From contig OZ316891.1 of the NCBI GenBank assembly GCA_973895155.1, positions 124,001 to 188,000 on the forward strand: a stretch of 64,000 bases of DNA, in the 5' to 3' direction. A model generated the notes under the pieces. That model saw only the letters and a list, made by a program, of their open reading frames with translations, was not told where the DNA came from and searched no databases. A program made the translations under genes and the position numbers. Below, piece by piece: positions 17,321 to 47,318 of this stretch. This DNA comes from Marsupella aquatica (taxonomy: Eukaryota > Plantae > Marchantiophyta). Numbering within the stretch: position 1 is the first letter of the stretch; each line of letters begins with the position of its first letter.

Positions 17321-17409
17321 TAGCCCTCTCCTCAAGCGGCGCCGTGCCCTCACAAGCCTTTCTGAAGTCTTCCACCAGAACTAAATCGCCTTTGAAATGC
17401 ACATTGGTT

Positions 17410-20435: not shown

Positions 20436-22303
20436 TGTAGTTTGCCATAGAGAACCAAAAATCACATTTTAAAGTCTCCAAACTCGGTATTCGTTCCCTT
20501 TAAGAACAAGATGGGGTTGGTTTGATGTAATAAACTAAAAACAAAGCTTTAAGCTCTTGTGTCACACATAGTAATCAATCTTGACTACTTTAATCAGGTA
20601 CTTTGAAGATCGCTCCACAGCGGTGAGTAGTTTTTGATGATAACTCAACATCAGATAACCTTCAATTAAGCAAAAGATTGCAATTAACAAAACACAAGGA
20701 AAAATCTCTCAGAGTATGCTTAAGGGAGTCTGGAATAGACCAAGGTTACTCCTTAGACATAAGTAATAATGGAATGACTTTAAGGGAATCCAAATCCACA
20801 CAGCTTTTCAGATCTAAACTGCATACTAGAGTATCCTTTTAAAATGCCGGCAACATGTCTTGACCTTTCTTCCTAAGTGATACTTAGTCAAGATCTAAAA
20901 GGATAAATACTTCAGCATTTAGATGGTACTAAGCAACATGAAGGTGAAAACATCATTTCCAATGCAACTTAAACTCAATGAGTTAACTCTAAGAACTTGT
21001 GAGATTACAATGTGTCACCAAAGCGGAATCTGACATTATAATTCACGAGATTCATAACTGAGGTTTTACTTCAAGTATTTGGGTTCCAAAATACAAGAAG
21101 GAGGTAAGTCTCTCCAAATGTTAAACCTGATCTCGAACTCATAGATTCATGATCAACTAGTTTAACACAAGGGAGAGGCAAAACTGCAAAACTTAACCAT
21201 CTCTCTACACTAGGGGAAGAGGTATAAATAGTGATGAACTACAGAATAAGAGGTCACAGGGTCGAAGAGACATGCCTCTTCATAACCCTCAAAAAGTCAA
21301 AACGACGATTCAATAAGTGGAAAGCCGGAAAAAATGGCTAAGTATGAACTCTTAAACTCTTAAAAACTTAAACTCTTAAAAACGTAAAAACTTAAACTCT
21401 TAAAAACGTAAAAACTTAAACTCTTAAACTCTTAATTTCGGTATACTAAAAATTGAGTAGATTCAACTATTTTTAACTTTCTACTCCTGGTTCGGAAAAC
21501 TCTGAAATTTTTCCAGCAGGGTTTCCTAGGTACAGACTACAGCCTAAAGAAGTCTCATAGCTTTTAAAGCTCTACAACACATTTAGAAAAATTGGTAAAA
21601 GTACTATACTTTTCAATACTAGCTAAAAAGATAGTCTCCTTCAAGCTTGTTGTCGAATATCATCGGGTTCGAGCAGCTCCACGTAGGTGACAGTCCGATT
21701 CTGTGTTACCTCCATCAGCTCAGTCTGACGTGGTGATCCTCTAGAGTAGGGTAGGCACCTTAGTTGTCTCTCAGGATACATCAAAGGCATTCGCTTCATC
21801 AAATAACAGGAATCTATACGAAGAGCTTCTCTGTATATCCCTAGTACATCATAGTTGTTGCAGGTGGCAGCATATACTTGGGGATAGTGATGCAGAAACT
21901 CATCACTATTCATCATCCTGGAATAGAAGGGTCGAAGTCTCCATTTGACATCTCTGAAATACCGGTTGAAGCTGGGCAGAGTTTGAGAGGTAAGGTGGAA
22001 GAGAAGTCAGTAATGAGCGCCTATGTCTTGCATTCCTTCCCTTTCAAGGTGAGCTCTTCATCCGTTGTGGAGTCCCGTTGAACTAGTTGTAAGATGTCAC
22101 GATCACAGAGTCGCCAAATCTTAAGGTGTAACTCGTAAAGAAGTGAACTAGTAAACTCGTAAACTGAGTTTACTCGTAACTTAGGAACTTAGTAACTTTG
22201 AATGCTGTTTTAGTTACAGTTAGCAATAATTGCAGTCTAAACACCGTAAAAAATTTAAAAATTTTCAGTTTCTTCATGCTTTTGGAATTACCCACTACTT
22301 ACA
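20436..22303 (-). repeat. LTR A3 (5' LTR of the tandem)
   Basis: Same sequence as A1/A2; followed by TSD TGAAG. Confidence 0.95.
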
Positions 22304-22379: not shown

Positions 22380-23548
22380 TTGGATTGGGGTGGTCCAAAT
22401 CAAAACCACGAAGATTGTATTCCGAAGGTCAAATTTAAGCATCTCGCTTGAATTGGGATCGTCCGAATCCAAACCAACCTCTATCCAACACACCCTCTTG
22501 ATTTGGATGGTCCGAATTCAAACCCAGATGGGATCCCAAAGGTCCCAATTCAACAAACGCGCTTGGATTGGGATGGTCCAAATCCAAACCCAGATTTTAT
22601 TTCAAAGGTCCCAATTCAAGCACCGGGCTTGGATTTGGATGGTCCGAATCCAAAACCAGATTGTATTTCAAAGGTCCGAATCCAACCCACCATCTTGGAT
22701 TCGGATGGTCCGAATCCAAACACAGATTCTATCCCGAAGGTCCCAATTCAACAAACCGGCTTGGATTGGGATGGTCAGAATCCAAACCCAGATTGTATGT
22801 CAAAGGTCCCAATTTAAGCATCGGGCTTGGATTCGGATGGTCCGAATCCAAAACCAGATTGTATTTCAAAGGTCTGAATCCAACTCACCATCTTGGATTC
22901 GGATGGTTCGAATCCAAACACAGATTCTATCCCGAAGGTCCCAATTCAACAAACCGGCTTGGATTGGGATGGTCCAAATCCAAACCCAGATTGTATTTCA
23001 AAGGTCCCAATTTAAGCATCGGGCTTGGATTCGGATGGTCCGAATCCAAAACCAGATTGTATTTCAAAGGTCCGAATCCAACCCACCATCTTGGATTCAG
23101 ATGGTCCAAATCCAAACACAGATTCTATCCCGAAGGTCCCAATTCAACAAACCCGCTTGGATTGGGATGGTGCGCGAATCCAAACCCAGATTGTATTTCA
23201 AAGGTCCCAATTTAAGCATCGGGCTTGGAATCAGATGGTCCGAATCCAAAACCAGACTGTATTTCAAACGCCCAAATTCAACCATCTCGCTTGGATTGGG
23301 ATGGTCCGAATCCAAACCGAGATTGGATCCCAAAGGTCACAATTTAAGCATTGCACGCTTGGATTTGGATGGTCCGAATCCAACACACCCTCTTGGATTC
23401 GGACCATCCGAATCCAAACCAAGATTGGATTCTGATCAGATGGTCCCAATCCTAGAAAATGGATTGGATTCGGATCATCCGAATCCAAACAACAATCTAG
23501 GATTAGGACCATTAGAATCCACACATCAAGTCTGGATTCAGATGGTCT
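22380..23548. repeat. Array of palindrome TTGGATTCGGA-TGG-TCCGAATCCAA in 66-bp units with a 198-bp higher-order repeat
   Basis: The cagatt landmark recurs at 22591, 22789, 22987 and 23187; each 66-bp subunit holds one 11-3-11 inverted repeat. Confidence 0.92.
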
Positions 23549-23602
23549 AACTCCACAATGAAGATTATGTTGAGATGGATATATTGAGATTGAGATCTCT
23601 TC

Positions 23603-24264
23603 CTAATCAAATTTAGACATTCTGGGTTTTTCGGAACATTGGGTAATTCGTGAAATAATAATTGGGAAGTCACTAGAATGCAGAACAAAGTGAAAGGGTT
23701 CGTCTCGCTTCCCTAAGAACTCAAAATAAGCAAAGCGACTAAGACCATAACACACCTCAGCAGTCTTGTTTTTCCAGTATGTCTCCAAGGTTGGCTCTGC
23801 TACCTCTAAATTGATGAATAAGTTCATATCAAACTGACTAAGAAAGCTATCAAAGCCACTTCAAGTCTAAACTCCATCAGAGAGAAGAGCTGAGGAGGAG
23901 TTGCGCAGACCTGGATGCCCAAGTGAAGATATGAAACTAAAACAACAATGATGTCCATAGAGTACCTCTTATACTCGTGGGTTGGTATGTTCGGCCCTGA
24001 ATGTGCGATCCGATAAGGTTGAGGCAACACCGAGTATCGCGGTTAGAACAATCATCCAATCCTTTTTCAATCCATTGTGTCAGACAATACAGCTAGCGTC
24101 CCACCCAAACTGATAGGACCAGATCCCTTCTTGGTCTCTATCCGTACAGAGATCATCCGTACAGAGATCATCCGTACAGAGATCATCCGTGCAGTGATCA
24201 TCCGTATGCAAACAAGCCTTTCAGGAGGGGGTAAAGGGAGGACGAGGTCTTCCACAAACCTCAT
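23603..24264 (-). pseudogene. Degenerate coding-like region of the Sola-like element (possible upstream exon or accessory gene); includes 15-bp tandem ATCCGTACAGAGATC at ~24140-24207
   Basis: Three successive short minus-strand ORFs broken by stops and frameshifts, same strand as the transposase. Confidence 0.35.
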
Positions 24265-24628
24265 TGTTGTTTCGCTCTCTGTCGCTCCTCACTCTCGCTC
24301 CTCGCTCTCGCTCTAGCTCCTCATTCTCGCTCTTGGCTGGCTGCCGCCGCTATCCCTTGCCCTTGCCCTAATTGCCTTCTTGCCCTAATCTGCTGCAACG
24401 CCCTAGATCTTGCCCATCTTGACGTGTCCTCAATATATCTTGCCACGTGTCACTCCTAAAAATGGAAGTTGCCAAGAAAACCGTCATCGTCCTGCTCGCC
24501 AAAGAATCTGATGACTTGGATCTCTCCTCTGTCGGTGATCTTGTGGCCCTAGCGCTTGGGGATTCCCAAGAATTTCAATCACAAGTCCAAAGTAAGTTTC
24601 CGGAGGTTTATTCATGCATCTTAAGTTG

Positions 24629-24890
24629 TTGGATTCGGATGGTCCGAATCCAAGAGGGTTGTTTGGATTCGGACCATCCAAATCCAAGTGGGTTGTTTGG
24701 ATTCGGATGGTCCGAATCCAAGTGGGTTGTTTGGATTCGGATGGTCTGAATCTAAGAGGGTTGTTTGGATTCGGACCATCCGAATCCAAGAGGGTTGTTT
24801 GGATTCGGACCCTCGGATGGTTCAAATCCAAGTGGCTTGATTGGATTTGGATGGTCTGAATCTAAGAGGGTTGTTTGGATTTGGACCATC
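24629..24890. repeat. 34-bp tandem of the same palindrome; continues at 38321-38540 beyond the CACTA insertion
   Basis: Unit GTGGGTTGT-TTGGATTCGGA-(TGG/CCA)-TCCGAATCCAA. Confidence 0.92.
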
Positions 24891-25136
24891 CACTAGTAGA
24901 AATACCCCCTATTTTTTACCATAAAATACGACTAACTATGACTAAAACCGGTCATGTATGACTGAAAATCACTGACGTCGTTCTTGCAACTAGTAGTCAT
25001 AAAAGTGGTGACTTGGATTAACTTAGTCATATTATTGACTAGTGTCATTAGTCATTAGTCTGCAGGATATAGATGTATCTGTGGTTCTGAACCCGAAACC
25101 AAGAAGAGGGCAGGCCTGTGACTCTCGATGATTAGA

Positions 25137-25157
25137 TTTAGGGTTTAGGGTTTAGGG
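25137..25157 (+). repeat. (TTTAGGG)3 plant telomere-type repeat in the CACTA subterminal region
   Basis: tttagggtttagggtttaggg. Confidence 0.85.
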
Positions 25158-25471
25158 TCAAGTATTTGGAACCATACATCAGTCAAACATAAGTGTTTAG
25201 AATGACTTAGTTCGAGTCATATGGGGTTTTCCGTGAGTGATTGATAACACTCAATTGACCGCACTAGTTTCCGTAGACAATGCTGTCATTCATAGTCGAG
25301 ACTGAGTCATTAATGTCACAAAAGCACCAATCCAACTAACAATGGCACGATAATAACTCAAAATATGAGCAATCCATAAAAAAAAAGTATTACCCAACAT
25401 CATGTACTCCAAATTGTGGTCATATATTGAAACAATCCTTCACATTTTGAGTCTCAAATTGTATTTGGTAC

Positions 25472-28335
25472 CTAACACTCTACAAATTTCTCAGGCCACA
25501 TCACAAATGATTCCACAGCATCCACAAGATGGATGTGTGGCGGATCATCTCCCTTGTTTGGAAAGGGTAGAAGATATTTGGGCTTACTGACAGCAGTCAA
25601 CAACAGCACAACATGATCAGCAAGTACCTTCTTTCCATGGAAAGTACTTGCTTCAATTTGAAGTATGCCTTGCCCAACACAAACACCAGAATTATCAGTT
25701 GCCATTAGCCTAAAAGACTGTGCTACAATGCTCACTGCTGTCCCTTTTGGAGAAGTGTTATTCCTCTTCTTCTTTGGTGCCTTGTAAGGCAAAGTCTCCT
25801 TCCCACTGTTTCTGGTCCTCATCTTTCCCATGTTCATCAGTGGTGGGGATTGAGAAAACTCATCTCCAATACCTGGGGGAGGCTGAGAGTCTATGAAAAT
25901 CACATCATTGTCATCACTCTGCTTCTCCTGTGAATCTGAAAATTTGGTAGCCTCTAAGTTTCGTCTCCTCTTCCTACCTGCTGGATTTGGTATGCGCACC
26001 TCCTCCTGTGCTGGCTCTGTACCTCAATAGCAGCCACAAATTCCTTCATTTACAACTAAGCATATAGGCACTAAAGCTGTCAACAAACCATCAAGTTTGC
26101 ACTAATTGAACGTACATGGCATAGATACTCAACCACATTAACAGGCCAGACAGAGTCTTCAAACCAACATTTACTTACTCTCAATGACAGTTGTACCAGG
26201 TTCGATGATCTTTGGATCTGCTGCAACCACTACAATCTGATCACCTGATACACAATGTAACAAACCTTCAGGGTCTAGAACCTGAACCTGAACCATCCTG
26301 CATCCATGAACCTCAAATTCCTAGGTAAAGTCACACTACACTAAACATGATTTCAGATGACACGTACCACTCTTCTTTGTAGGCACAACTTCCACAATAT
26401 TTGCAGGCTCTTCATATGGATGTGCAATTGGGTGCTCAACCCTGCCAGCAATGTGCATCGCCCGCAACTCACGTAGTTCAGCTTGTACTTCCCTTAAGGT
26501 TGATCCTTGGCTTTGAAGAAGACTAGCTATGTCCTTGAATTGACTCTTCATCTCAGTCTCTACTGATGGCCAAGCGTTCTCCACAGTCTTCAACCGGTCT
26601 GATATCTCTGTAAGGGTAGACACTGCTCCCTGCTATATATCACATACACCAACCAAACGGCTCTTCTCAGCAATTTTACAATTGCATAAGGGCTGACAGT
26701 ACTGTACATCTGAAGAAGGACTGTATAACAGATTGTCCATCAATAATGCTCCTAAATTACCTGTTTAGATCCAATGCTGCCTTCATCACACTTTACCCTT
26801 TTGATTTTTGCCACAACCTCCTCTTTTGTGGGTTTCTCTCCAGTAAGCTTTTTCTGGAGCACATAAACATTGCAAGACACGTTTCTCAATGTCAATCTTG
26901 CCTAAACGTAGCGTGCTACTACAACTACATACAGTCCACTCAAATATTGAAATGTAAATAAAGATATGTATGGCATGGGAACCCAACCAATTTGGCTACT
27001 ACTGGTGCATGTCCTCCCCTCCCTATAAGCGTAGGATTCTTCACTGCATTTCTAGCAGCAATCATTTGTGCAGACTTCTCCTGTCCTGCCCTAGACAGGA
27101 ATGTCCCTCTCAGTCGAGCCCATTGTTCTACATGAACACTTGGGGGTGCTTCAGCATGTGGTTTACTGCCATCAGCAATCCATGCTTTGTGCAATCGATG
27201 CCTCTCTGTTTTCATGATAGTTCGTCCATACTCTGCAAGACAATCAGCACTGACCCCTTTCCCAGAATTCCCCAAATATTCCCACTTGTCTCGCATATAT
27301 TTGCAAACCAGTTCCCAGTCAGATGGATGTTGACAATTAAAGTTAGTACAGCTAATGTCCAACCACCGTAGACACTCCATTCGCAAGTCATTGTGCCATC
27401 TATTCTTTCCAGCACTCATCGTTGTGATCCGGCCTTCATCATCAACTTCAACAGTACCCAGCTTCACATTCTCACCTCTCCCAGTGCTCCCTGACGCACT
27501 ACTTGGTGTTGCAAATCCAGGAGTTGCTCTCCCATGGCCTGAGCGGGGTGTGATAGGGTTATCTGAAAAGAGAAACGCAATTAACACCATTAATATCATA
27601 TGGTCTCTGTGAACTACCTGATTTCAATACTTTACTTAGAACTGCTGTAGAAAATACCTCCTCCCCTCCGCAGACTCTGTGTCGGTTGGACTGAAGGTGC
27701 TAGTGCTGGTGCTGGTGCTGGGTTCCCACCATACCCACCATAACCTTGCCATCCTGTCGCCATTGGGAGAGGACCTCCCATGAATTGCCCCGATGGCCCC
27801 ATTGACCCTCCTTCATACATATTTGTGGGCTGCATACGGTCCCACATTGGGTCTGCCATTCACATCAGACCAGGCAAATTGTCATACTCAGACCCACATC
27901 TATTGAGGAACACAATCAGCCAATTTGAGCTCAAAATACACTTGTCCACATGAAACAAATTAAAATGTTCACACTTACTTGGCCAACTTGGACCCATATA
28001 GCTGGCAGAAGGGCCTACACCCATAGACCCGCCATAGTTATTGCCCCCCTGTCGTGCTTGCGGCCAGTTATAGTTGGGGGCATTAAATTGGGGGTTATTG
28101 CAATTGCTGTTGCTTGGGGCTTGGGCTGAGTATACAGAGGGCGTTGGTCGAGATCTCATAGAAGTTCCCCAGTTGCCTTACTACAAGCAGGCTTTGGTGG
28201 AGGGGTAGGATTTGGCATGTCATCATCCTCTGACATGCTAGCACTTGCATTCGGATCTTGGTCAGGATCATATTCTGTATCACCAACATCAGGCATGCAA
28301 TCCTCTACCTCATTCTTATCAGGAGATTCAGCCAT
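25472..28335 (-). CDS. CACTA TnpA-like multi-exon gene with C-terminal DUF8039/Tnp1-like domain (exon boundaries approximate)
   Basis: Minus-strand ORF series with GT-AG borders; RWHNDLRMECLRWLD...MKTERHRLHKAW...QWARL...KSAQMIAARNAVKNPTLIGRGGHA, a coiled coil, and terminal VCVGQG...LPFPN...DAVESFVMWP. Confidence 0.75.
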
Positions 28336-28798
28336 TGAAATAGGGGTCTTTGAAGTCAACCTCTCACTGCGTCGCCTAGGTCCGTCAGGATTACAGAAGG
28401 TCTTCCGTCTACACTGACTCCGCTTCGACAGTGTTGGGATACTTTTGTTACTGCAACACCCACATGAAATTCGACACAGGTTATGTATGTAGTAGTCCAT
28501 TACAGAAGCTACACAATGAACAGACGCACACAATGAGATACACATACAGCTCATACTATGCACAGTCCCTTACATATCCGAAATAGCCTCTTGCACATCA
28601 CCCAACAGGGCTGCGGCACATTGGCGAACCCATGCTCGATGTTTCACAGCCTGCTTCTCATACTCACACATGCCATTTTCGTCTGGCATCCTACTCACCA
28701 AGTTACTGCGGTTGCACAAACAAGTCATCCATTTATTGCTCATACTTGCTACTCATTGCACTTCAAAGAGTCACCTACTCACAACAAAACAAATCCAA

Positions 28799-31700
28799 CT
28801 ACTCATCATCTTCGTCCATGTCAGCTTCAACCTCTCCCTCATAAGTCTGTCTCACTGTCAAGGGGATGTACTCCCTGGTCCCCTGGCCCCGATGTACAAC
28901 GTCTACTGCCGGCTGTTCAAAGGCCCCATGTGCATCCAAACTGAACTCTATTTTAGTACCCTCCATCCTTCGAACTCTAGGTGAGCTATGGCAGACTACA
29001 CGCCAACCACGAGACTCCTCCACATCTAAAAAAAATACTTGCTCCACTTGACTTGGGAACACAAAAGGCTCCATCCATTCTGCCAGTCTTTGGTTAAAAT
29101 TGACCATTAGAAAGCCATCCATATCCCGTTTCATGGTCGCTCTTGGCCCATGCCAATCTGGCTTCACCCATGAACCTTTCATTAGGATGATTTGTTGTGA
29201 TGTGTTCCCATAATTCAGTGCCCAGATGTCTGCCAACTCCCCAACATATCCCATCTCCATCCAGCCCCTGTTGCTCTGAGCATCTATATGCTCAAACACA
29301 GATATTACCCCCGAATTATATGTCACTAAATGCTTGTCCTCATCATCATGCACACGGTACTGATTCCCATATGCTTTCATCCGTTTATACCGCTGTACAA
29401 TACGTCTGGGAGGCATAGACAAGAGGAGAACATCTCTATCCATGTTTGGGTTCTGCCTGCTATGCTCTCGAATTGTTGTCCTAATCCACTCAGGAAAAGT
29501 AGGGAATGCCTGGTGATTTAACCCTAATTGGGCGGCCTTCTGCACATTGTATTCCCTGCATGATGACAATGAGAACAATTTCTCAATACAATGTACATAT
29601 CCTACCAAAATGGATATGAATAAAGAAGGAATGCAAGGAGGGTGCGGAAACATGAGTACTCACTGCCACCAAGGTTGCATCATGACTGTATTGTGTAAGA
29701 CATATAAGTGTGCTGCATCACGAACTTCTGCAGACAATTGCAAGGAAGTAAAAGCGCCTTGAAGAACCTCTCCAGCCACCCCCTCTTCTTCCTCAGCATC
29801 CCACACCCTGCTCCTAACAGTGTCTACACCAGCCATGTACTCTGTAAGGAACCCCAAGGTCTCTTCTTGAATGTAATCGAGAGCCATGCTTGCTTCAGGC
29901 CTATAATAAGTACGTACATGGCCTTTTAGCAACTTCATGTACCGTTCCATTGGATACATCCACCTTGTACTCACTGGGCCGTAGTGGCCCAGATCTTCAA
30001 CCGCATGGATGATCAAATGAGTCATGACATCAAAAAATGCTGGCGGGAAATAAATCTCCAAGTCACAAAGCACACGCACAGTATCTGCCTTTAACTGAGG
30101 AAATGTTGTAGGGTCCCACACCTTCACACAAATACGACGAAAGATCTGACACAATCTCAAAATGACATTGCGAACTGGTTTTTGCATCAATCCCCTCAGA
30201 CATACTGGTAGAATGTCTTGCATCATAACATGGAAGTCATGAGTTTTCATGCTTCCCAACTTCTTCTTCCTTATATGCTTTGCAAAGGCTCCAGCGTACC
30301 CAGAGGGTACTCTGAACGAACTCAGCCTAGACAAAATTGTGTTCCACTCGTTCTGGGTGCAAACATATGGAGCTTGGTACTTGAAAACCACACCCGGCCT
30401 ATTCTGGGATTCTTGCAGCCAAAGTTGAGGACGAATGCCCTTCTCCTGAAGGTCCTTTCGTACTGCTGCAGTATCGTTGTCCCCCGATAGAAACTTCAAA
30501 AGACTTTCGCATACATTCTTCTCAATGTGCATAACATCAATGTTATGTTTGCTTGGCTCAAAATCCTGCACCCATGAAGTACGCATGATTGCCACAATTA
30601 GGTTCAGACACAAGAACTAAAAACTGTTGTGCATAGGATCTGAAGAGGTTCACTGAGTACAAGTGAATATGCAAATGTTACCTTCCAATACTCCAATGAT
30701 GTGTCCATCATTGTCTGCCTTTTGATGCCATGAGTCTTTGCTGGGTCATCTGGCACGTCTCTACAAGCACCATATTCATCATAAGACACCTTGTTCAGTC
30801 CCCACTGCAGAAGTTGGTCTCTACTAACCAACACAGGAGACTCTCGAAGCTCCCTCTGGTTGTTGAAGTGGGCTATGTGGGATTGCCTGTGCCTGAAAGG
30901 GTGGTCGGCAGGAAGATATCGCCTGTGGCCCTGGAATTTGATACTGCCCAAGGAAACGGACCGTTCAGATGTAACATCTGGGCCACATTGTGTGCAACCC
31001 AGATATCCCTTCCCTACCTGCCCAGATATCATGCTATGTCCAGGGTAGTTTGCTATTGAATTAACACACATTGCACGTAGGTTGAATGTCCTCGGTCTAC
31101 CAGGTCCACAAAGTGCATCAACTGTCATAACTCCATGTGTCCATAGAGTAATCCATTCCTCCACCGCAGGGGCCAACCAAACATCTATGTTTGCACTTAT
31201 AGCAGAGTTTGGGCCGGGAATCATAAGACACAAGATCACAAAAAAACGCTTGGTGGATATCCAAGGCGGGAGATTATAATTTATCAAAGTCACTGGCCAG
31301 CAAGAATACACGTTGTTCTTGTCTCCAAAAGGATTAGCACCGTCAAGGCTTAGACCAAACCTCACATTTCTGCTCTCTGCTGCAAAGTCCGGCCACTTCT
31401 CATCTATGTACTTCCAGTGGTTGGAATCTCCAACGTGACGTTGCAAACCATCTGTACTCTTCTGATCAGAGGTCCAAGTCATCATCTTAGAAATGGATGG
31501 ACACCTATAGAGGCGCTGCAATCTTGGAATGAGAGGGAAATGCCGTAGGACCTTAGCAGGTTGAGTTGACTTCCCCACGTTCTTATATCTGTGCTTTCCG
31601 CAGATAGGGCAGGATAGGCAATCAACATATTCTTTTCTGAAAAGTACATGGCCATCTGGGCATGCATGGATGGACACATAATTCAAACCAAGTTTGCTCA

Positions 31701-32556
31701 TCACCTTCTTTGCCTCATACATGTTCTTAGGAGCAATGTTTCCAGCGGGTAGTACTGTCCTCTGTAGGAACATCAACAACTCTGTTACACATATGTTGGG
31801 CACACGGTGACATCCACATATATTGAGGAACATCACTATGAACCCTAGTTTGGAGCAATTTGCACCACCATACAATGGGGACGTAGCTTCCTCCAAGTAG
31901 GCCCCAGTTCCCAAGAATTGACCATCATCTCCAGCTCCTTCTCCAATGTCAAACTCTTCTTGGTCCGATGGATTTGCACCATGCATGTCTGGTTCTTCGT
32001 CCCCCTGTGCCTCTGCATCTTCATAAAGTGCATCCAGGTCTTGAAAAATGTCGGAAACCATCCTAGGAACATCTGCCCCGTCCTCATTAGAAGTCTCGGG
32101 ACCTCCCTGTGGAACATACTCATCTTCGGCATTGTTGCCTGCATGACCAGTGACGTTATGAAAGAATGCAGAGCGTCTTGCTGTATTCACATTTTCAAAA
32201 TCTGCTCTCCATTCATCATCCGATGAATCCTCTTCCTCTGGCACATTCCACACCCTGCGGATTGGATGTCTTCCATGCCTTTGAAGATGAGAATGCACTT
32301 GGTTCAGGGTCATCGAGTGGTATCCTCGACATTGCATGCAGGGGCATCTCATCCGGGCATTTCTGCCCCGACTTGCTCTAAGCACCTCTCTATTCCACAA
32401 CTTGGAGTCATGACATGTAATCCTCAGTGGGTGATGCAAAGGGAGTCGCACTTCATTGGTATGTCTCTGATTCCTTTGCCCCAACTGTCCATCCTCATTT
32501 GCCTGATCCATACCTTCAGCTGTCGTAGGCACCCCTTGGCTATGTACCCTTTGCAC
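28799..32556 (-). CDS. CACTA TnpD transposase (Transposase_21, DUF4218, DUF4216); exons ~32556-30682, 30565-29665, 29555-28799
   Basis: CPCMQC..HLQRHG, IHACPDGHVLF, LRHFPLIPRLQRLY, FGLSLDGANPF, YNLPPW, IDVMHIEKNVCES, WMYPMERYM, EPFVFPSQVEQVFF. Confidence 0.93.
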
Positions 32557-32904
32557 TAGACAGGCTTATACAATTGCATATTCTAAGTACATGGAGGGGA
32601 CACATGCAAGTTTCATGAAGGAAATATCATAGACGCTAAACACACTCACTATCAAGTCCGCTCTGTGCTGGCGCCCGACCTGCTCACTACAGGCAGCAAC
32701 ATCATAACAGACTTGCTATAATCAGTGAAGTGCTTGGTCGTTGACCAGTCAATGGTACAACGTACATCATACACTGCCATACATCTCCACATGCAAAACC
32801 AAGACATTTGGAGGATGAAAAGGAGTAATGTCTTGTAGACAAAAAATAACACACAAAAGTTTATTTCAAAAATGTAACCGTCTAGCATACAGACAGTTGA
32901 GACC

Positions 32905-33855
32905 TTATTCATAATCATTAGGGCTAATAGAATCATACACACTATCAGAAAACTCTTCATCCGTGGTCTGGAACTCAGAAGTAACATATTCTGGGTCGTC
33001 ATAGGGAATGAATGGCTTTGCTGGCCATATTTCATATAAATCATATTTATGCTCATCTAATCGCATATTTGTTGAAAGTGACTGCCTGACCCATTCAGGG
33101 CAGACCACACGCAGCCCATGTGTGATGAGCCATCGTACTGTGGACTTTCCATACTCTCAGCATGCCTTAGAATATGAATGAGCAATGAGATGGGTGGTCT
33201 CATTAGTGAGCTTCTCAATCACTGTACCACCTCTTCTACTGATCTCCCTCTTGAAACGACAGACCCTATATGGCTTGATAGACTTGTCAAGTATAACAGC
33301 CCTCACACCTCTGAACATGGTACGGTCTGGGATGGGTTCTGTCTCATATGGGATAATGTTGTTGTATACTTTTGTGATCTGGTCAATAGACGGAACCCTA
33401 CTCCCACCTCTCCCTGCAATTCTACGAGCCTTGTGCCAATCTCGACTGTCTTTCATCATTTGGACGCTATTGTACTTGCTCTCAAACAAATTGTAATCAT
33501 CAGGATCTTGGACACTCCCTTTTCTAAGGGAGTCAGACATCCATTCTGCTGAAAGTATTTTGACATGCCTCAAGAAGACTTTGTCATAGAAAACCGACCA
33601 AGATGCCATTTTCAGACAATGTTCCCATGTTTCTGCAATAATATGGGTGACTTCAGTGTCCTGTAGTTGAGATTGTGTCTCTGTACCGTGACACTCAATG
33701 AGTTTTCTCCTAAGGATATCCAATCTTGCACTCTGAATACCTGGGACAAAAAAGACTCTGACCCCTTGGAAGATGGGAGCACACTGGGAAGTTGGAAGGG
33801 GGACAAGTTCACGCTTCCGTTTGGAAGGCATGATGCCTCCTGTAATAAAAGCCAA
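32905..33855 (-). pseudogene. Tandem BRCT-domain protein (Pol lambda-like BRCT) with one in-frame TGA at 33157-33159
   Basis: IFQGVRVFFV...VTHII...ILSAEWMSDSL and MFRGVRAVIL...GGTV...TTHLI...VVCPEWVRQSL; the two ORFs are in frame, 16 codons apart. Confidence 0.8.
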
Positions 33856-34734
33856 TAGAGAAATACCAGTGCCCGCGTTGCCTGTCCCTCAATGCTTCAG
33901 CCCAATGCTCTCTGATGACACAAAGTGCACTCTAGCTCCCTGATTGTGGCACACATGACAAGATCGAAAGTCAATACATGCAGTAAATCCCAGCACGGAG
34001 TTATAGGACAAACCATATACTCTTTAGTCAAATTATTTTCACCATGTGTTCATGTAATTACATTGATGAAAGTAGAGCGACAGCCTACTTCAGTATACAC
34101 ATAGCATACATGTGGCCCTTTATATTGTCTTGTCTGCATATAGCCTGAATTCACATTTGAATACCTGTATCTTACGTGACAGTGGTGGGGACTGAGAATG
34201 ATATCATTCAACTGCCCAATTTCCAGTCACATCTGTAATTGTACAAATGTATGGGTCAGGCACACGACTTAAGATGACCTTTGTTAAGAGCAGAAACAAA
34301 TACATAATTTGAGCTATATATGTATTTTCATACTCCAATGCATGCATGTTGTTTTACTCCAGGCAACAGTCTGCTTGGAATCTTTAGTCTTTCACAGTTA
34401 TGGTCTCTTGCCATACACATGATTCACTCAAAGTGGAAAAAACACAGACATCCTTGTGCAGGCCCTAACTTTGAAATTGCAATTAACTTAATCAGTCTTC
34501 AAAAAATAAGTTAACTTAGTTAGTTTTGGAGGTGTCATCGTGTACGAAAGTATAAGGACAGAACCATGTATGGCTGAACTGAAAAAGCAAGATCCAAATT
34601 TACTATGCAGTCACAAAGTCGATCGATAGCTCACTGTAGCGGGGTGTGTCTGAGCTATGGTTGACAGCGCAGTGAGGTGCCCACTTCATTAAAAAGTCCA
34701 AAATGTGAGATGTGCAATGTTGGATTCATTTAGC

Positions 34735-35457
34735 TCAGCCTGTTGGTGCTGATCCACTTGTTTTGTTGCTGGCGCTGGAGGTGTCATCCAGCAATAGCCA
34801 AGTCAAGTGGTCTCTCGCAGGGGTCTGCAAATGAGGGTCAATCGTATGGAGGTGGCAATACAAAAACCACCTATCAACCCCGTGTGCAGAGTGGGAATAA
34901 ATTTGGCGGTCACATGCATACCCTTCTGCCTGAAGGGCTAGTAAACACTCATGGTGCCAGGCTGTGGGACATCTGGGACAATGGACCATGTCTATCCAGT
35001 AGTCATCATCAGGCTCCCCACAAGCAGGACAAATATGTAGTGGGCAAAGGGAGTTATCATGGGGCAAGCATGTCAAACAAAAAAAATGAACACAAAACCT
35101 GTCAGGACATTTCCGCAGCTCTGGTTGATCCCCCTCAACAGTGCCGTTTGTGCCACATTGAGCACACTTGCTGATATTAGTGGCACAATCAAAGCAAGTC
35201 CAAGCACCCCGATGGTCCCCCTGGAGCCCAACCCCAGGGCATGCATTTTGTGGTGCATAAGTGGACCAGGAATTGACATGGAATTGTCTCAGGCAGGGGC
35301 CATCACACATGACCAGGTCACCTCCATCATCACAAATGGCACAGACATGAGCGGCTTTCTGATGAATTTGTGCATTGGACCAATGATGATGTCTACTCAT
35401 GGAATCGTGCCTCACCTGTGATCCGCCTCTGTGTGCTGACCGTTTTGGACGAGCCAT
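34735..35457 (-). CDS. Stand-alone EDM2/NSD-like composite PHD-finger protein
   Basis: CAICDDGGDLVMCDGPCLRQFH...WTCFDC...KCAQC...KCPDRFCVHFF...CPLHICPAC...CPRCPTAWHHECL follows the Cys/His spacing of plant EDM2 PHD fingers. Confidence 0.82.
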   Translation of the reverse strand: MARPKRSAHRGGSQVRHDSMSRHHHWSNAQIHQKAAHVCAICDDGGDLVMCDGPCLRQFHVNSWSTYAPQNACPGVGLQGDHRGAWTCFDCATNISKCAQCGTNGTVEGDQPELRKCPDRFCVHFFCLTCLPHDNSLCPLHICPACGEPDDDYWIDMVHCPRCPTAWHHECLLALQAEGYACDRQIYSHSAHGVDRWFLYCHLHTIDPHLQTPARDHLTWLLLDDTSSASNKTSGSAPTG

Positions 35458-37789
35458 GACTTCTACCCCGATAGAAAACAACACAATATATGGCCAGAGT
35501 CAGTGACGTAGTGAAGCATGCAAAGAATGAGAAACTAAAACTATGAATTAATACCAAAGATTTGAGAAACTGTAATTTCAAGTTCTAAATTCAAGACGGG
35601 TTGTGTGCATGGAGGAAATTTTAAGTTTAGGACTCTGAGATTGTACACAGGCAATTACTGAACGATTTCTGCCATTAAAGGTGGGCAATTGTTGGGCTAG
35701 CATTTTCACACATTAATTTTTATAAATTTTGGGGGCCACGAAAATAAGGGGAACCAGTAGAAGAATTCAAAAGTCCACAGCAGGACATTGCTCAGCACAG
35801 CAAGAAGGCCAGTAGAATACAATCGACACCCCATACATAAAATCCAATCAAATAACCCAAATCCAGTCTACACTTCCATAGTGAAATCCTAGCTTGACCC
35901 TGGCCCCGATCTGAGATTGCTATAGTGATGGGCATGCATAAGAGAGGGAGAGATTTCTATACATACTTGAGGATAAGCAGCACAAACGCTCGACCCTGAG
36001 ACCACCAGTGAAGACAAAGCAATGACAATGTAGAGGGCTCTGAGTGATTATAGACCTCAAGAGTTGACAAAACCCTGGAATGATTTCTTTGTGCCTAGCT
36101 TGGCAAAAGAGAAAGCTCTTGAACGGGTGGGAAAATGATTTGCAAGTGCCACAGACAGAGTGTGGCTCATCAGTTCTGTGGCTCATTAGTTGTTCGTGGA
36201 GGAGTACATTATAGAGTATCACATTTGACTAATGTCCTGTACATTGAATACATACAGTGGCAAAGTAGTCAATGGAAGAGTGACCTGCTCCCTTTGCGTT
36301 CTTCCTGTTGCCGAAATATGAATGTAGAGGTAGAATTGCATGCAGGAAAATTTGAAGTTTAGGGCTATGACATCCATGCTTTGTGCAACCTCTAATCCGA
36401 AAGCCTCCAAAGACACAAGTGAAGCATGTAGGCGCGCGTAATAACTTCTAATTTAGTCATTGACAGTACAAGAGTATACTCTAAAATCTGCGATTCTGAA
36501 AGTACAAGCATTGCAAGCGCGCAGGTCTGAAAAGTTGTTGCAAGACACAAATAAGCACTAAGCGACTAAGGACAGGACCGTTGAGTTGAAATCACAGCTC
36601 AGCAAAGGCAAAGAAAAACCCCCCGCACCCCACCTTAGTTCTGCACAACACTTCTGCACACTAGAATACTAGTGTATAAGATTAGAGCAATTCAAGCCGA
36701 AGCAGAATGAAAGTGCCAACAATATACTGTGATCCCATCTACATTTCCATAGTGAAATCCAAGTTCGACGCCGACCCCGACATGAGATTGCTATAGTGAT
36801 GGGCATGCATAAGAGAGGGAGAGATGATGACACGTACTTGAGGATCGCGAGAGAGAGAAATTTGCAACAGAGAGTGGACACAATGGAAGAGCGAGACACG
36901 ATGGAAGAGCGAGACCGAGAGAGAGGGCGAGAGAGAGTGAGGTGAGAATTCAGCAAGAGAGGTCTCGAATAGGGACAACCTTCTATATATGAACCATAGT
37001 TTTTGCTGTCATTAATTTTCCAGAGTTAAGATGAACAAACAGAGTACAAACAGAGCACAATGAAGCACCACAGTGCGTCGCACGGGACCTCTCACCTCTG
37101 CCTGAACACCAGCCGCACCCAACACCACACCAGAGATCAGTGGTCTTGAAAACAAGTTGACACCCTAAACCTGGCACTTCCAATGTCGCCCGCTCCAATG
37201 TCGCAGCGCATTTTTGTTCTAGCTCGTTCTCCTCTTGACCGAAGAACAACCCAACAAGCAAATGGCGGAAGATGGACGCACTTAGCACCTGGGTGAATGT
37301 GGTCACGTTGCGCTTCAAGTGTGGCCCTAAACCCTTCCTCCTCCCTTCAATCACAGAGAGTCTTCGACCGCAAGAGCAAGAAGCACTTCCTCTCCTCTCA
37401 TCTCCCAATGCTATGCAAGGCAAAGAGGTAAAGACTTACAAAGCTAATGGAGGAAGATGGACCCCCGCACCACGAACTTGGCGTCCGACCCTAAAATTTC
37501 CCGCAATGCCCCCGCAATGCCTTCAGGGAGCACTCGCAAACGCACCCAGCACCCGATTGAATGTGGTCAGGTCGCTTCAAGTGTGGTGTCAAACCCTTCC
37601 TCCTCCCTGAAATCACAGAGAGCCCGACTCACTGCACACTAAGAATCCCATTGTTTCTCCATAAACCTTCGTTCCCTCCTTGATTGATCGACTATCGATC
37701 GCCCCTCTCAATGAGTCGCCTCATTCGCTCCACCTCCCCTCCCCTTTATAAACCCTCTTTGCAGACGAAGACCCTACATTTGCTCCCGC

Positions 37790-37923
37790 GCACAAGGGTG
37801 GAGAGTACTAAGGTTCTCAGCCAGTGACATGTAAGGGGCTCATGTAAGGGGGTACTGCACAACGGTGGAGAGTACTAAGGTACTCAGCCAGTGACATGTA
37901 AGGGGCTCATGTAAGGGGGTACC
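37790..37923. repeat. Two tandem 67-bp copies in the CACTA 5' region
   Basis: gcacaa.ggtggagagtactaaggt.ctcagccagtgacatgtaaggggctcatgtaagggggtac x2. Confidence 0.9.
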
Positions 37924-38775
37924 TCTACTATTTGAAGCTTTCTCACATAAAAAGCTTGAATGTTTGGCAATTGGTGAGTAGCACTCACTCACATAAGAAC
38001 CCTAAACTAAGACAATCAGCTTAGATAGTGGACCTGCCATTTTCCTTATGATGGGATGTTGTAATTAAGTGGTATCCCCCATCCAACTTCAAAGGTGCAT
38101 GGACAACCTTGAACCATGAACAATGTCCCTTGCACCTTGAAGAATGAGTGATTGAAAAGAGTAGGTAAAGTCAACATCGCAAAGGAGTCGCAACAAATGA
38201 GTGGAAACTTTGTGGAAGTGATACTTAAGACATATGTAGTGATAACACCCTAAACTTCCATAACCTTGTCACAATAGTCAATAGTGGTTTGGTAAAAAAT
38301 AGGGGGTATTTCTACTAGTGCCAAATCCAAGAGGGTTGTTTGGATTTGGACCATCCAAATCCAAGTGGGTTGTTTGGATTCGGACCATCCGAATCCAAGT
38401 GGCTTGATTGGATTCAGATGGTCCGAATCTAAGAGGGTTGTTTGGATTCGGACCATCCGAATCCAAGTGGGCTTCTTGTATTAGATTCGGATGGTCCAAA
38501 TCCAACAGGCTTGATTGGATTCGGATGGTCCAAATCCAAGAGCCCTCAATCTCACTTTGACAGTGATTTCTTAAAACAAATTTCATGGATTTGAAGTCCA
38601 ATATGAATTTTCACTCTCCAATGCAGAGAGTGATCTGGTGAATACAACTCTTGCCATTTCAGAGGCAGACTGCGACGATGGGCTCATTTTGGAGGACCGT
38701 GATCCAGGATTTCGGTGAGGACTTGAGTTCTCGCGAGTAAACTTCCGCCTGAATTCATTTAACATTTAGGATCCA

Positions 38776-41700
38776 GTGTTATGTGTCAAGATCAAGACAG
38801 GCAACAACCAAACATTGGTCATCGGACCCGTGGTCTCTGTGGGAATGATAGGAAGAGGAATGAATTCTATCATTGTAGAGGTGTCGGACACGATGAGGTG
38901 GGCAAAGTTGCAACTTCCGTCGAAGGCTTTCTCGGCCGAGTTCAATGTGGATGGTATGCAAGTGGGGAATTAAGTGTGTTGTTGATGGGATTCTTTCCAA
39001 AATCCTACACAAAGGAGAAGATTATTGGAGGACTGAAGGGAATGCTTCCTTTGGACATTTTTTATGGGTTTCTTTATTTGAAACTCAACATTGTAAACAA
39101 CCCATCAAAGTTCTCTCTTCCATCCACATGGACTCTTAACAATTTGCTTGAGAAAGCAGGTCTAGTGTCACCAGACTCAAATGTTTGGATCACCAAGGCA
39201 CTAGCCTTTGCACACACGCTTGACCTGGAAAAAGCAAATCTATGGGTAGAGTCTTTGGTGAAGTTGAGGAAAAGTACACAACCACAGAACATAATTGAGT
39301 CTACGCCAGCCAAAAGAACTCCAGCAACTACGATGGAGACAACACAAACTACTGCAGCAACAACCATGGATAGAGCGGCAGGGAAGCGAAAGCAGAGGGA
39401 GAAGAAGCTTCCGGTTGAGAAACCTACTTCAGTTGAGAAGAAGATCACGGCTCCAGCCAAGAAGAAGTCAAGGGAGAAGAAGAAACAAAAAACCGACACC
39501 GGAGTTGTGAATTCAACTCCTGTAGATTTTTCATTACATGCTGAAGATGAGGGTGATAGGCCACATGCTCCAGAGGAGAAAGACGTCTTAGAAGGGAATG
39601 AAGTTCTTCAACAAATGGAGCAGTACTATACTTTTGGGATAAACGAAATTTTTCTGATCCCAGTTGAAAGTATTTTTGCCGCACCAGCGAGACTATGCTA
39701 TCGGATGATGAATTTTGATCATGTGCAAGACATTGCTGATTCCATGATCAAAACACCTGGGCATGAGCCACATGTCGCTGATTTGATTCCTTTTAACGTC
39801 AAGCGAAGAAAGGTACTCCATTTTGAGAATACGGAGTCGGACCGGAAGGATTTTTTGGCCGGAGTGAAAAAGGGCGAGGTCCAATTTCTAGCCGTTAGTG
39901 GTCAGCACTCTGCGAGAGCTGCGAGATGGATTCGTGATTGGGCAACGAAGGATGCCAAGCTCACCCAGTTGGCCAAGAAGTTAGAATTCAGGAAATCCAT
40001 AATATTGTCTGATCGCACACCGTCTTCAATTCTTGTTGAGCACTCCATGAGATCGAACGCCATCAATAGCACGATGGTGTTTCAGTCTTGCTTTAAAGAT
40101 ACAGTTGTCCATGCGAGGCGGCAGTTTGTTGAATGTGGAAATCCAGACAAACCAAAACATGGCGACAACAAAACAAATGCTCAAGACAACCAAAAATTTC
40201 AGGTAAGAAATGTGATTACTTTGTATGCATTTCTCTACCATAGAGAGTAATTCTATTTTGGATTCGGATGGTCTCAGTCCGACACGATTTGTCAAAGAGT
40301 ATTGGAACTTTTGGAATGTTTAGTACGAGTTTTGTTTTTGATTGAGACCATCCGAATCCAAAACTATTATCGCACATTAGAATCCTTTTTTTCCAACCCT
40401 TGAGTTGGGGATAACTGACTAGCTTTCCTTTTGGATTGTAGGATTGGTTGGCTCTGGCAAGAATGACTATGGGCAGGAAGGACTTGCGAAATGTATACTG
40501 GCTACTTTTTGCGGACAATGATCTTTTTGAGTTGTGGCGGTTAGTCTGTGAGATGTGGTTGCATGGGAAACTTCCTGATGGAGCTGGGATGGAAGGAAAT
40601 AACAAGTCCAAAAAAGCAATTACCATTGCCATGTTTCGTCCCTTTGATGGTGAGTTGATCTCACAGAAAGACATCACAAAAATCCTGACACAAGTGAAGT
40701 CAGGAAAGGCATTGCTGAAGAAAGATGCCACAAATAAATCTGACATACCCTCAATAGAGGAGCTTGCGAAGGATGTGAAAAAAGTGAGGAAGCTCAAGTC
40801 TCTCATTGAAGAGTACTACTTTGGCAAGGATCCAAGGAATTTCCCTTCGGATACCGACTGGAAGAAAGTTGTAGAGGTTCTGCCATTGTTGAGTGTTGAC
40901 GCAGAATTCAAGAGATGCAGAAGAGCGGCTGGTGAAGTTTTTTTGTCAAATCTGTTGAAGCCAAATCATACCAGGGAGAGTGCAATCTTGCCAATAGCTC
41001 TGGTGATGCGCCTTGATGACATTTATTGCCAGAAGTTTGGCGGAGGGACACATTCTCGGAGCCAACCGTGGGTCAGGTTCTTTAGTGACAATCTAATGAA
41101 AATAGTTGATCCACCAGCAATAGAAGAATCATCTCCAACGTGCTCACTTGCCATTGTTGACTTCAGTCGAGATCACCAGAAGCTGTGGATGGAAGCAAAA
41201 GTTTTGGTCTTCTACAATACATTGTGGAGCTACCACAAAATCTTACAATCGTTGTAGCCATAACTGTTCATCCGGGGTCTCTTGCAATGAATGTCCTAAG
41301 CTCACTTCAAAAATTGGGACAAGAGAAATCTCACACGATTCACATTGAGTATGGGAGTTATTCTCGAGAGGATCAACCGCACCCGCTTGATTCATGTTGG
41401 GGAGGCGGAATTGAAGAAGTTATATTCGCAGGAATTTCTTGAGATGAAAATGTCAATTGGAATGATGTTTTCAAACCCAATCACCCAAAGCCAAAATTCT
41501 TTTTTGGTTCAAAAGATACTGATTTTGAGGTCACCAAGATTGACACTGGGAAGGCAAAGGTTGACACAGACGACGTGTCAAAACCCGAAGATCTAAAAAT
41601 GATGCTGACCCCAGAAGAGGCGACCAAGGTTTTGCACATGGCCCCTCGATTTGAGATAGTTGGTGCTCGTGGTGGTTGGGTGAATCCACATGCCAAACCC

Positions 41701-42177
41701 ACGCGGATGATACAGAGGATTATTGAATCCTTGTCAGAAGCTGGAGACTTGATTCTTGATTTTTTCTCGGGTGGTCAAGTGATGAAGACAACATTCTTGG
41801 TGCAACGCGAATGCTTTGTTTATTGTGACTCTCAAGATGAGAGACACTTTGTGGAAGCGTATGCTTCATTCCTTTGTGAGAGGGTCCCCTCAATCAAGGA
41901 AAATTGGGATCCTCGTGGTGGGAGTTCTAGGCATTGGAAACCCACTATTGCGGATGTTTCTGCCAAACATGAATCAGCTGATAATTCTGAAGAAGTGGGC
42001 GCTAAGTCAGTCAAAGATAATGGGGCATCAGAGGTGGCGTATGCAAAGAATTTGGATGACCGTGTAGGTCAAAGTGAAAGCATAGAACCCTACGATGTTG
42101 ATGATAATGTTGGTCTTGCACACGCCCTTCATCAGGTGCAGGTGCCCAAAGTTAGAACTAAGAGAGGCTTCTCTTAG
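38776..42177 (+). pseudogene. ParB/sulfiredoxin-like domain fused to a beta-class N4/N6 DNA-methyltransferase-like domain; intron 40203-40441; probable C-terminal tail at 45471-45682
   Basis: IPVESIFAAP..YRMMNFDHVQDIADSM..QFLAVSGQHSARA (ParB-like); SLAIVDFS, EEVIFAG, NPHAKPTRMIQRIIESLSEAGDLILDFFSGG..QRECF (MTase motif X/I order). Frameshift ~41200 and TGA 41440-41442. Confidence 0.65.
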
Positions 42178-42307
42178 TGCTTGACTCCTTGTAGTGGGCA
42201 TGCCACTCACAATCACCTTCTTATCTCCCTCCTCTTGAACAACCAACCTGCAAACACACCTCCAAGTCTTGTGGCTCCACTCCCACAACAAAAATTGTAA
42301 GGAGTTG

Positions 42308-42325
42308 TCCCCGGCAGCGGCGCCA
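42308..42325 (-). other. tRNA-Asp-type PBS of truncated family B element
   Basis: tccccggcagcggcgcca on plus; 20 nt from the LTR end. Confidence 0.8.
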
Positions 42326-42345
42326 AAAACAAAGGTGGGACTCTA

Positions 42346-45300: not shown

Positions 45301-45470
45301 GAACAACACATTTTCTCCCTTCCATGATTTCCTACTAGCCTTTCCTAGTGACTTAGGGTTGTAAACCCTAAGTACTTTGCTAACACTACAACAACTTTCT
45401 TACTATTCCTTGTACAAACAACAAAAAAATTGACAAGTTCCTTGCATACCCTATATTGAGCCGGTCCACA
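42346..45470 (-). mobile_element. Family B 5' LTR (3.1 kb) with PBS and a short leader remnant (~42180-42345)
   Basis: TG...CA ends match solo LTR 51228-53221 in inverted orientation; no second LTR or TSD seen. Confidence 0.8.
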
Positions 45471-45917
45471 GTGGGCCAAATAGAGGCCAAGAAGTTTCAT
45501 TGGATGCTGCTCCATCGATTCTTAACAGGAAGGAGTATAAGAGAGGAGAATTGGGATTGATAACTCCTGTTTGGACGTCACTTTATTGGGTAGAACAAAG
45601 TACTTCAGATGTCAATTTTGAAATCCAAGAGGAGCTGGGTGTTGACATTATTGATGAATACGGATCTCTTTTTTCAGACTGAGATCAAACCGTCTGACTT
45701 TCCATTTTTTCATACCAATCTAAAATACTTCTCGGTCTCACAGAATGCGGTCAGCAATTAGAGCCTCGATATCCACCTACGCTCTTTGGGGCTTCTAAAA
45801 ATGGTATGTAGGTTTTTTTGTTGTTAGTCATTGTCTTGTATTTTTGGACTGAGACAATCTCAGTCCAAAGTTCAAATTTGGTTTTCTTTCTAAGAGTTGT
45901 ATTTGTTGCCCTTGCAG

Positions 45918-46954: not shown

Positions 46955-47318
46955 AGATCTGACTCATGTTAAGCCCATTAGATAGTAAAAAATGGGTGCC
47001 AGCCCTGGATATTCATTGTAAGTTTGGACACAATTGTATATAATTATTTCACACATTATCAATCAATGGTCCTTGCCTAGGCTTCTTTGTGCGTAAATGT
47101 TTTTACAAGTATGATCTCTATCCCATGGTTCTTTGTGAACTAATAAGTAATATAATACTATTATAATTAATATAATATAATATATTAATATAATACTAAT
47201 CAGATTTGGCCTATAAAGTGTACATTTAGGTATCAAAAAGTGTATATTTGGGCTTCTTAAAGTGTACATTTGGGGACATAAAAGTGTACATTTCAGGACT
47301 GATTTGTGAACAAACGAA

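Follow-up and report, generated by a model that had tools for sequence, protein, structure and literature searches.

A 25-bp palindrome repeated across non-coding parts of a giant Sola-like transposon of Marsupella aquatica as a candidate site of the element's own ParB-like protein

Why does a giant plant transposon carry dozens of copies of one long palindrome in its non-coding DNA, and which protein, if any, reads them? The question is raised by a 64,000-nucleotide stretch of the liverwort Marsupella aquatica (contig OZ316891.1, positions 124,001 to 188,000; hereafter the window), in which a Sola-like element of ~41 kb (6087-47344) encodes a transposase, a ParB-like/methylase-like protein and a NIF/FCP1-like phosphatase. 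The palindromes, here called dyads, consist of two 11-bp arms around a 3-bp centre (25 bp). Judged from the sequence, the dyad is probably a selected site for some protein, and we give about even chances that this protein is the ParB-fold protein encoded by the element itself; that the effect of such binding would be anti-silencing is a tentative proposal drawn by analogy.

Exact copies of the dyad were found 10 times in the window, and copies at ≤3 mismatches 28 times, with 0 in 100 shuffles in both cases. A scan with the degenerate half-site TTGGAYTNRGA, which was built from these same sites and whose counts are descriptive rather than an independent test, returned 37 dyads at a spacer of 3 against 0-4 at every other spacer from 0 to 8; the figure of roughly 35 copies in a preliminary description of this DNA therefore stands when mismatches are allowed, and does not stand for exact copies. 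The centres of the 37 dyads read TGG (23), CCA (7), AGG (3), TCA (2), TCG (1) and CAA (1). Because CCA is the reverse complement of TGG, the dyad is a single site with a conserved asymmetric centre, present in two orientations. The spacers had been described as differing; it is the linker between dyads that varies, and the centre is conserved. In the 34-bp array the centre is flipped while the orientation of the linker is unchanged. As reported in the accessible text of PMC8604942, template switching between inverted-repeat arms yields flipped centres and homogenised arms, so that a flipped centre and a mirrored variant arm are expected without selection, and neither the "differing spacers" nor the "compensated arms" adduced earlier are evidence of selection. 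The variant dyad of the phosphatase intron (45844-45868) exists as described, with perfectly mirrored arms and, according to that description, the centre CAA. The two sites placed earlier at ~40259 and ~40340 in the intron of the ParB-like gene are also present (at 40258 and 40337), yet not as symmetric copies of the main dyad: both are hybrids of a common arm and a variant arm, self-complementary at 7-8 of 11 positions, and such sites with unmatched arms persist in the element. No exact dyad was found in viral contigs, metagenome contigs or prokaryote genomes, and a search for related loci in metagenomes gave 112 pattern matches, of which 0 were confirmed.

The window scan placed 36 of the 37 dyads, and 56 of 56 exact half-sites, in four clusters, all of them non-coding and within the Sola-like element: one upstream of the transposase open reading frame (ORF), two in the ParB-like gene, within its predicted intron 1 and within intron 2, and one in the phosphatase gene, within its predicted intron. 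The sole exception, at 9339, lies inside the transposase ORF and carries 3 mismatches. Within the window, exact half-sites are absent from the nested elements (28.6 kb), the flanks (22.7 kb) and the coding DNA of the element (8.7 kb), and the confinement to the element that had been claimed is supported there and broadly in public contigs. Repeat analysis bore out both repeat periods, 66 bp and 34 bp. Each 66-bp unit comprises one strong and one degenerate dyad; the array holds 21 dyads that depart from the degenerate pattern at ≤3 positions and begins ~120 bp upstream of the transposase ORF once a long terminal repeat (LTR) insertion is removed. The 34-bp repeats, previously taken as two separate arrays, are the halves of one array that was cut mid-unit by a CACTA element (24891-38320) with identical 31-bp terminal inverted repeats (TIRs). 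The 66-bp and 34-bp arrays mirror each other about a dyad-free spacer; their dyad consensus is identical, and sampled 9-bp linkers agree at 3-6 of 9 positions. In intron 2 the dyad pair makes a 24-bp inverted repeat with CTA on both flanks. A reading of the locus as a foldback element, in which the arrays would be modular TIRs, was rejected because its outer and inner ends differ outside the dyads.

Whether the dyad or the linker is the conserved unit was examined in public contigs, which were aligned from six of eight listed sequencing runs (X1, X2, X3, X5, X6 and X8). Cover of the arrays comes from X1, X2, X3 and X5, whose labels name three organisms, and not from X6 and X8, which hold a small share and in which absence from the contigs is not evidence of absence. 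Over 38340-38539, with differences counted at a share of ≥25%, the contigs differ from the window at 10 of 50 linker positions versus 0 of 125 consensus arm positions; five of the seven deviating arm positions of the window copy also differ, all five toward the consensus, and in contigs of X1 and X3 intact dyads are separated by new linkers of 9-10 bp. These comparisons favour the dyad rather than the linker as the conserved unit. They also fit a protein site, which the preliminary description had proposed as dimeric; the two arguments given there, the free spacer and the compensated arms, are weak. The summed depths of contigs over the arrays and over the ParB-like gene are similar in order of magnitude; depth is not copy number. 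Contigs running into unlike sequence over 38270-38680 make up 6% in X1 and 2% in X3; the shares of 58% in X5 and 100% in X8 come apparently mainly from the CACTA end, the flanks of which are mixed in public contigs (agreement 0.47-0.57), as expected for an independent mobile element. We inspected 24 of 74 rows of loose contig ends; 10 were array-side, and of the nine tested, six map to the element's arrays.

The candidate reader is encoded between and beyond these sites. The predicted intron 1 of its gene starts at donor 24592 and has five in-phase acceptors (38563-38668), of which 38563 gives an in-frame stop; exon 2 of the window copy bears two stops and one frame change. Exon 2 has four close homologs at 40-45% identity and 130 profile matches, and among the 30 matches looked up 14 were named, 13 from Riccia sorocarpa and one from Calypogeia fissa; searches for homologs of greater length returned none, which is weak evidence. 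The ParB domain went undetected in Pfam, PHROGs, NCBIfam and PDB sequence searches and was seen only through the Atlas and fold search. The Atlas neighbours of the region were DUF3723 (0.95, 31% of the members of the cluster) and ParB_N (0.92), the latter with 126 shared features, fewer than the guide value. An earlier structure model built from five sequences was unusable (predicted local distance difference test, pLDDT, 36), and the model used is that of the Riccia homolog P0073, 28% identical to the window protein over 192 aa, with pLDDT >80 over residues 91-340 and low confidence at the methylase-like part. Foldseek ranked Noc, ParB and KorB as its top matches (best E 3.9e-4). VIA-align returned PadC (Z 8.5, root-mean-square deviation (rmsd) 3.2, 99 aligned) and KorB (Z 8.1, rmsd 2.9, 94 aligned), and we take six or seven of its top seven rows to be ParB/Srx-fold proteins. 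On this model the homolog P0073 has a ParB fold, and the ParB fold ascribed earlier to the encoded protein is supported, through this homolog, by the Atlas and the fold search. Matches extending further were weaker (pNOB8 ParB, model residues 105-408, Z 7.4, rmsd 5.2; Spo0J, 137-403, Z 4.5, rmsd 4.8); a DNA-reading helix-turn-helix in the helical region is weakly suggested.

The rest of the protein would make it a binder rather than an enzyme. Exon 3 matched N6_N4_Mtase in Pfam (E=3.6e-6) and also CcrM, RsrI and MboIIA. A motif-I-like stretch (DFFSGG in the window) is kept in the window copy and four homologs, and at the presumed position of motif IV the window copy and three homologs have a D without PPY; none of the 141 fetched proteins has [DNS]PP[YFW], and the majority of them do not extend across the methylase-like region. 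The catalytic motif is apparently degenerate and the domain dead, and because this motif looks lost, the protein would act as a binder or recruiter and not as a methylase. GANTC, which we take to be the CcrM site, occurs in the common arm of the dyad, and CcrM was the top weak match (E 0.0065); this lead was dropped, since the variant arm lacks GANTC and the match is generic. In two automated Riccia gene models, P0100 and P0104, the ParB-like part is fused to a piece of transposase or to an FCP1 domain, which suggests that the linkage of transposase, ParB-like and phosphatase genes is old. Four of the 141 fetched homologs, all from Riccia (P0058, P0079, P0094 and P0114), have an N-terminus resembling what we take to be the histone H3 N-terminal tail; no such stretch was found in the window, and on this family it could serve as a chromatin decoy.

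From these elements the following sequence of events can be proposed. Tandem duplication of a 33/34-bp monomer would have spread the site into two mirror-image arrays flanking the divergent promoter, with template switching flipping the dyad centre. A dimer of the ParB-like protein would bind each dyad, the helical region after the ParB core reading it, so that the dyad would be an operator of the element's own ParB-like protein. The arrays on either side of the divergent promoter, together with the intronic sites, may then concentrate the protein over all three genes. Such binding would relieve silencing, or time activation, in this family specifically, as VANC does for VANDAL elements, and would keep the element's own genes accessible.

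Several observations weigh against this reading. The contrast between arms and linkers is inflated, the contigs being dyad-anchored and units from different array positions being overlaid, and its Fisher P of 2e-6 is no valid test of independent copies. Of 29 arm substitutions in the window, 16 are of the CpG type, and one of 26 deviating columns is mirrored (27 sites); the deviations look like CpG decay and not compensation, and the sites would therefore have been methylated at least in the window's dead copy. The CpG observed/expected ratio is 0.57-0.76 in the arrays and spacer; the transposase, exon 3, the phosphatase gene and the nested elements have 0.40-0.51. As the flank stands at 0.67 and the motif itself is CpG-bearing, no conclusion for or against the reading is drawn from this ratio. 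Template switching combined with concerted evolution can homogenise arms without selection. Three of the nine tested array-side loose ends, all from X3, map nowhere in the window; two are mutually complementary and one adjoins the intron end, which suggests a related family whose intron differs. Judging by the X3 loose ends at 38484 and 38552, intron 1 of a related family appears to end in another inverted repeat, possibly a family-specific variant of the site. The structure model is that of a Riccia homolog and not of the window copy itself, and the helix-turn-helix signal is weak. The arginine motif of ParB proteins is GxxR. In the present family the core reads SGQHS in 54 of 91 counted motifs and GxHR in 0 of 141 fetched proteins, and because it is SGQHS-like and never GxHR, canonical clamping of cytidine triphosphate (CTP) is doubtful; an arginine patch is required for ParB spreading, according to the accessible part of PMC5499601.

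The strongest competing account, unlikely in our judgement, takes the dyad as a neutral, self-amplifying hairpin minisatellite with a small derivative in intron 2 resembling a miniature inverted-repeat transposable element (MITE), surviving where it is harmless, in introns and spacers. The tandem structure with its 198-bp higher-order repeat, the CpG-type decay and the flipped centres typical of template switching (PMC8604942, accessible text) fit this account, as does the MITE-like look of the intron-2 pair with its 24-bp inverted repeat and CTA flanks, and coding constraint alone would explain the absence from exons. It accords less well with four clusters that have unrelated flanks and keep the 25 bp while the linkers drift, with the lack of the dyad in 51 kb of nested and flanking DNA, and with the finding that just 2-6% of array contigs in two deep runs enter unlike sequence, against the mixed flanks at the CACTA end.

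Slightly less likely again is that the Sola transposase, or a product of that gene, binds the dyad and activates its own family. The larger of the two arrays sits immediately upstream of the transposase ORF, and transposases can act as sequence-specific activators of cognate copies, as stated in the accessible text of 10.64898/2026.08.24.746577. Against this, red-algal arrays adjoin ParB-like genes in a different transposase superfamily (bioRxiv 10.1101/2025.02.11.637652, accessible text). The 22-bp subterminal repeats at both ends of the element carry a motif that is unrelated to the dyad and non-palindromic, and no dyad lies near either end. Subterminal repeats are the usual sites of transposases, and those found here are likely the end-binding sites. 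The repeats at 6144-6378 and 47215-47293 share the same orientation rather than being inverted, which is unusual for end-binding arrays.

It is improbable that a host transcription factor reads the sites as an enhancer array timing the expression of the element, for example in the germ line: their position beside the divergent promoter and in first introns and the conserved asymmetric centre would suit such a factor, but the window's other transposons contain no half-site, and plant transcription factor sites are usually shorter than 25 bp with 11-bp arms. Least probable of all is that the sites act as RNA, as intronic hairpins giving small RNAs or steering splicing, since the long stems that opposite-orientation sites form in the predicted introns (-75.4 kcal/mol for intron 2, a value with no shuffle control) are set against deviations that are as often mismatch as wobble on either strand, with no strand bias of wobble-compatible changes, against hybrid sites that disrupt the short stem, and against the lack of any Rfam family at gathering score over 22300-24950.

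Recognition by the ParB-like protein can also be weighed by comparison with known systems. The accessible text on the Plavaka (EnSpm) elements of the red alga Bostrychia moritziana describes a giant DNA transposon with a ParB-like accessory gene, PAG3, and adjacent tandem inverted-repeat arrays, and its authors propose self-binding and draw the comparison with VANDAL (bioRxiv 10.1101/2025.02.11.637652). The present element shares the giant size, the ParB-like accessory gene and the tandem inverted-repeat arrays beside it. It differs in having a Sola-like instead of an EnSpm transposase; ParB is there fused to a 2-oxoglutarate (2OG) oxygenase and the methylase is separate (PAG2), and that text mentions neither a phosphatase gene nor intronic solo sites, both of which occur here. 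Sola1-1_Ec32 of the brown alga Ectocarpus is, in the accessible text of PMC12477816, a 21.5-kb Sola element with nested insertions and a gene for a ParB-like protein plus N4/N6 methyltransferase that runs opposite to the transposase, on the other strand. The Marsupella element is likened to it, by description, in the gene opposite the transposase and in the nested insertions; unlike here, "palindrom" occurs 0 times in its main text and no third gene is mentioned there, and the methylase catalytic motif looks degenerate in our element.

VANC, as described in the accessible part of PMC5735166, binds the 9-bp non-palindromic motif YAGTATTAY in non-coding tandem repeats, with binding and demethylation shown experimentally. 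The parallel drawn earlier with VANDAL of Arabidopsis stands in that a family-specific, non-coding motif is tandem-amplified, in the window and in the aligned contigs, in introns and intergenic parts, and that an accessory gene exists besides the transposase. VANDAL elements belong to the Mutator superfamily, the site here is palindromic and of 25 bp against 9 bp, homology is not expected, and our case is read from sequence only. By analogy, the element plausibly works like the algal ParB-accessory elements and like VANC.

With bacterial ParB, Noc and KorB and their parS, NBS or OB sites the element shares a ParB/Srx N-terminal fold followed by a helical region, and clustered dyads near the gene (PMC5499601, accessible part). 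Unlike those systems, it has a eukaryotic spliced gene in a chromosomal transposon, an altered arginine motif, a fused methylase-like domain and a 25-bp site with an asymmetric centre, and a Pfam scan of 17 ORFs, which covered the longer ORFs only, recognised no ParA-like gene or other motor. The element is not a parABS system, and the parS-like partition role suggested in the preliminary description finds no support, no ParA-like gene being recognised among those ORFs and the ParB core lacking the GxxR arginine. A beta-class N4/N6 methyltransferase-type domain of a liverwort is also known from Marchantia DN4MT1, a host gene with an intact TSPPY motif in whose accessible text "ParB" occurs 0 times (bioRxiv 10.1101/2021.02.12.428880); the element's domain, unlike it, lacks a PPY-type motif.

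The design is thus already in print for red and brown algae. The literature covered, mostly outside subscription journals, held two algal papers and no liverwort Sola case, no land-plant giant transposon bearing ParB and no case of phosphatase cargo; what the present locus adds is a land-plant case in which the ends of the element are defined and the anatomy of the site is exact, with dyads at each of the three genes, a methylase domain that is apparently dead and a phosphatase as cargo. It offers a defined 25-bp candidate site together with natural variants (two arm types, hybrids and degenerate units), and the protein family, with 130 profile matches and its named members in liverworts, makes the proposal testable in a lineage with transformable models. 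Were it true, each family would be a natural protein-site pair for targeted de-repression, and the persistence of very large elements in methylated plant genomes would be easier to explain. A wider picture, more speculative than the anti-silencing effect and in our view unlikely as a whole, is that liverworts harbour an old, diversified giant Sola-like lineage with its own complete kit for epigenetic control, in which a catalytically dead ParB-fold methylase reads a family-specific 25-bp dyad at the divergent promoter and in introns of all the element's genes, an FCP1-like phosphatase tunes RNA polymerase II there, and some families add an H3-tail mimic. Land plants would then have a second, independently evolved system of sequence-specific anti-silencing, whose protein-site pairs are readable from the sequence.

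Table 1. Features of the Sola-like element and of its dyad sites (window coordinates).
Feature	Position	Strand	Remarks
66-bp array	22380..23556	unstranded	32+34-bp dimer, 198-bp higher-order repeat
Dyad-free spacer, predicted divergent promoter region and predicted exon 1	23557..24591	unstranded	
34-bp array, left half	24629..24890	unstranded	directly past predicted donor 24592
34-bp array, right half	38321..38539	unstranded	
Intron-2 dyad pair	40256..40363		dyads 40258-40282 and 40337-40361, opposite orientation
Phosphatase-intron variant dyad	45844-45868		inside predicted intron 45804-45917
ParB-like gene, exon 1 (predicted)	24462-24591	+	supported by splice signals and phase only, without homolog support
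ParB-like gene, exon 2	38626..40202	+	N-terminal domain, linker, ParB/Srx-fold domain, core motif SGQHS
ParB-like gene, intron 2	40203-40441	+	junction read across by Calypogeia protein P0014
ParB-like gene, exon 3	40442..42177	+	helical domain and beta-class methyltransferase-like domain, frameshifted
Left target-site duplication and left 26-bp TIR	6083..6112	+	CTTT 6083-6086; TIR 6087-6112
Left subterminal 22-bp repeats	6144..6378	+	core AAAGTGTACATTT; 8 copies in subterminal-repeat comparison
Sola-like transposase	6600..10428	-	two frames, 7405-10428 and 6600-7445
Nested LTR retroelement	10470..22303	unstranded	LTR-internal-LTR-internal-LTR, 5-bp target duplication, no dyads
Nested CACTA/EnSpm element	24891..38320	-	Transposase_21, DUF4218, DUF4216, BRCT and PHD ORFs; no dyads
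Second nested LTR fragment	~42180..45400	-	boundaries approximate; no dyads
NIF/FCP1-like phosphatase gene	45460..46954	+	predicted intron 45804-45917
Right subterminal repeats, right TIR and target duplication	47215..47348	+	repeats 47215-47293; TIR 47319-47344; CTTT 47345-47348

The limits of the element are well defined (Table 1). Its TIRs are identical over 26 bp, the 4-bp target duplication CTTT stands at both flanks, and excision of the element in silico restores an open frame, read as CACTA-transposase-like and resembling the DUF4218 region of the window's other CACTA transposase; by these three features the whole 41 kb is one insertion, of ~12.7 kb without the nested insertions. The transposase gene lies on the minus strand, and the ParB-like/methylase-like and phosphatase genes, both spliced, on the plus strand. 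The window copy is decayed, as the stops and frame changes in the ParB-like gene and the two-frame transposase indicate. The transposase matched DUF7869 in Pfam (E=3e-43) and has three acidic motifs, which we take to be the catalytic motifs of the Sola type. TIRs and a 4-bp target-site duplication are features of the Sola superfamily. The element is called Sola-like, a provisional label, on the 4-bp duplication, DUF7869 and these motifs. Sola1 has a tetranucleotide target with an AWWT preference (PMC3845634), which the CTTT duplication does not fit, although one insertion site is too few to rule such a preference out. The N-terminal third of the transposase frame 7405-10428 contains three repeated domains, one with a weak Transposase_23 match (E 5e-4), and similar domains occur in CACTA ORFs.

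The nested insertions have features of their own. The tandem units of the LTR insertion at 10470-22303 are 100% identical and only a gag-like ORF was recognised in it, which points either to an insertion in tandem that is very recent or to a duplication made in the assembly; a relative 98% identical to it lies inverted at 54397-58065. The CACTA element, which inserted within one dyad unit, has additional ORFs with BRCT and PHD-finger domains. At its junction a duplication of 1 bp, or of 2 bp with a slip, fits better than one of 3 bp, and one X5 contig contains the identical CACTA-array junction with no differences. An 870-bp segment of an LTR family occurs both inside the Sola-like element (42346-43215) and, inverted and 99% identical, outside it (52354-53221). 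The Sola-like element is itself hosted by an older CACTA-like element (~5850-6086 and 47345-50600), which brings the nesting to four levels in total.

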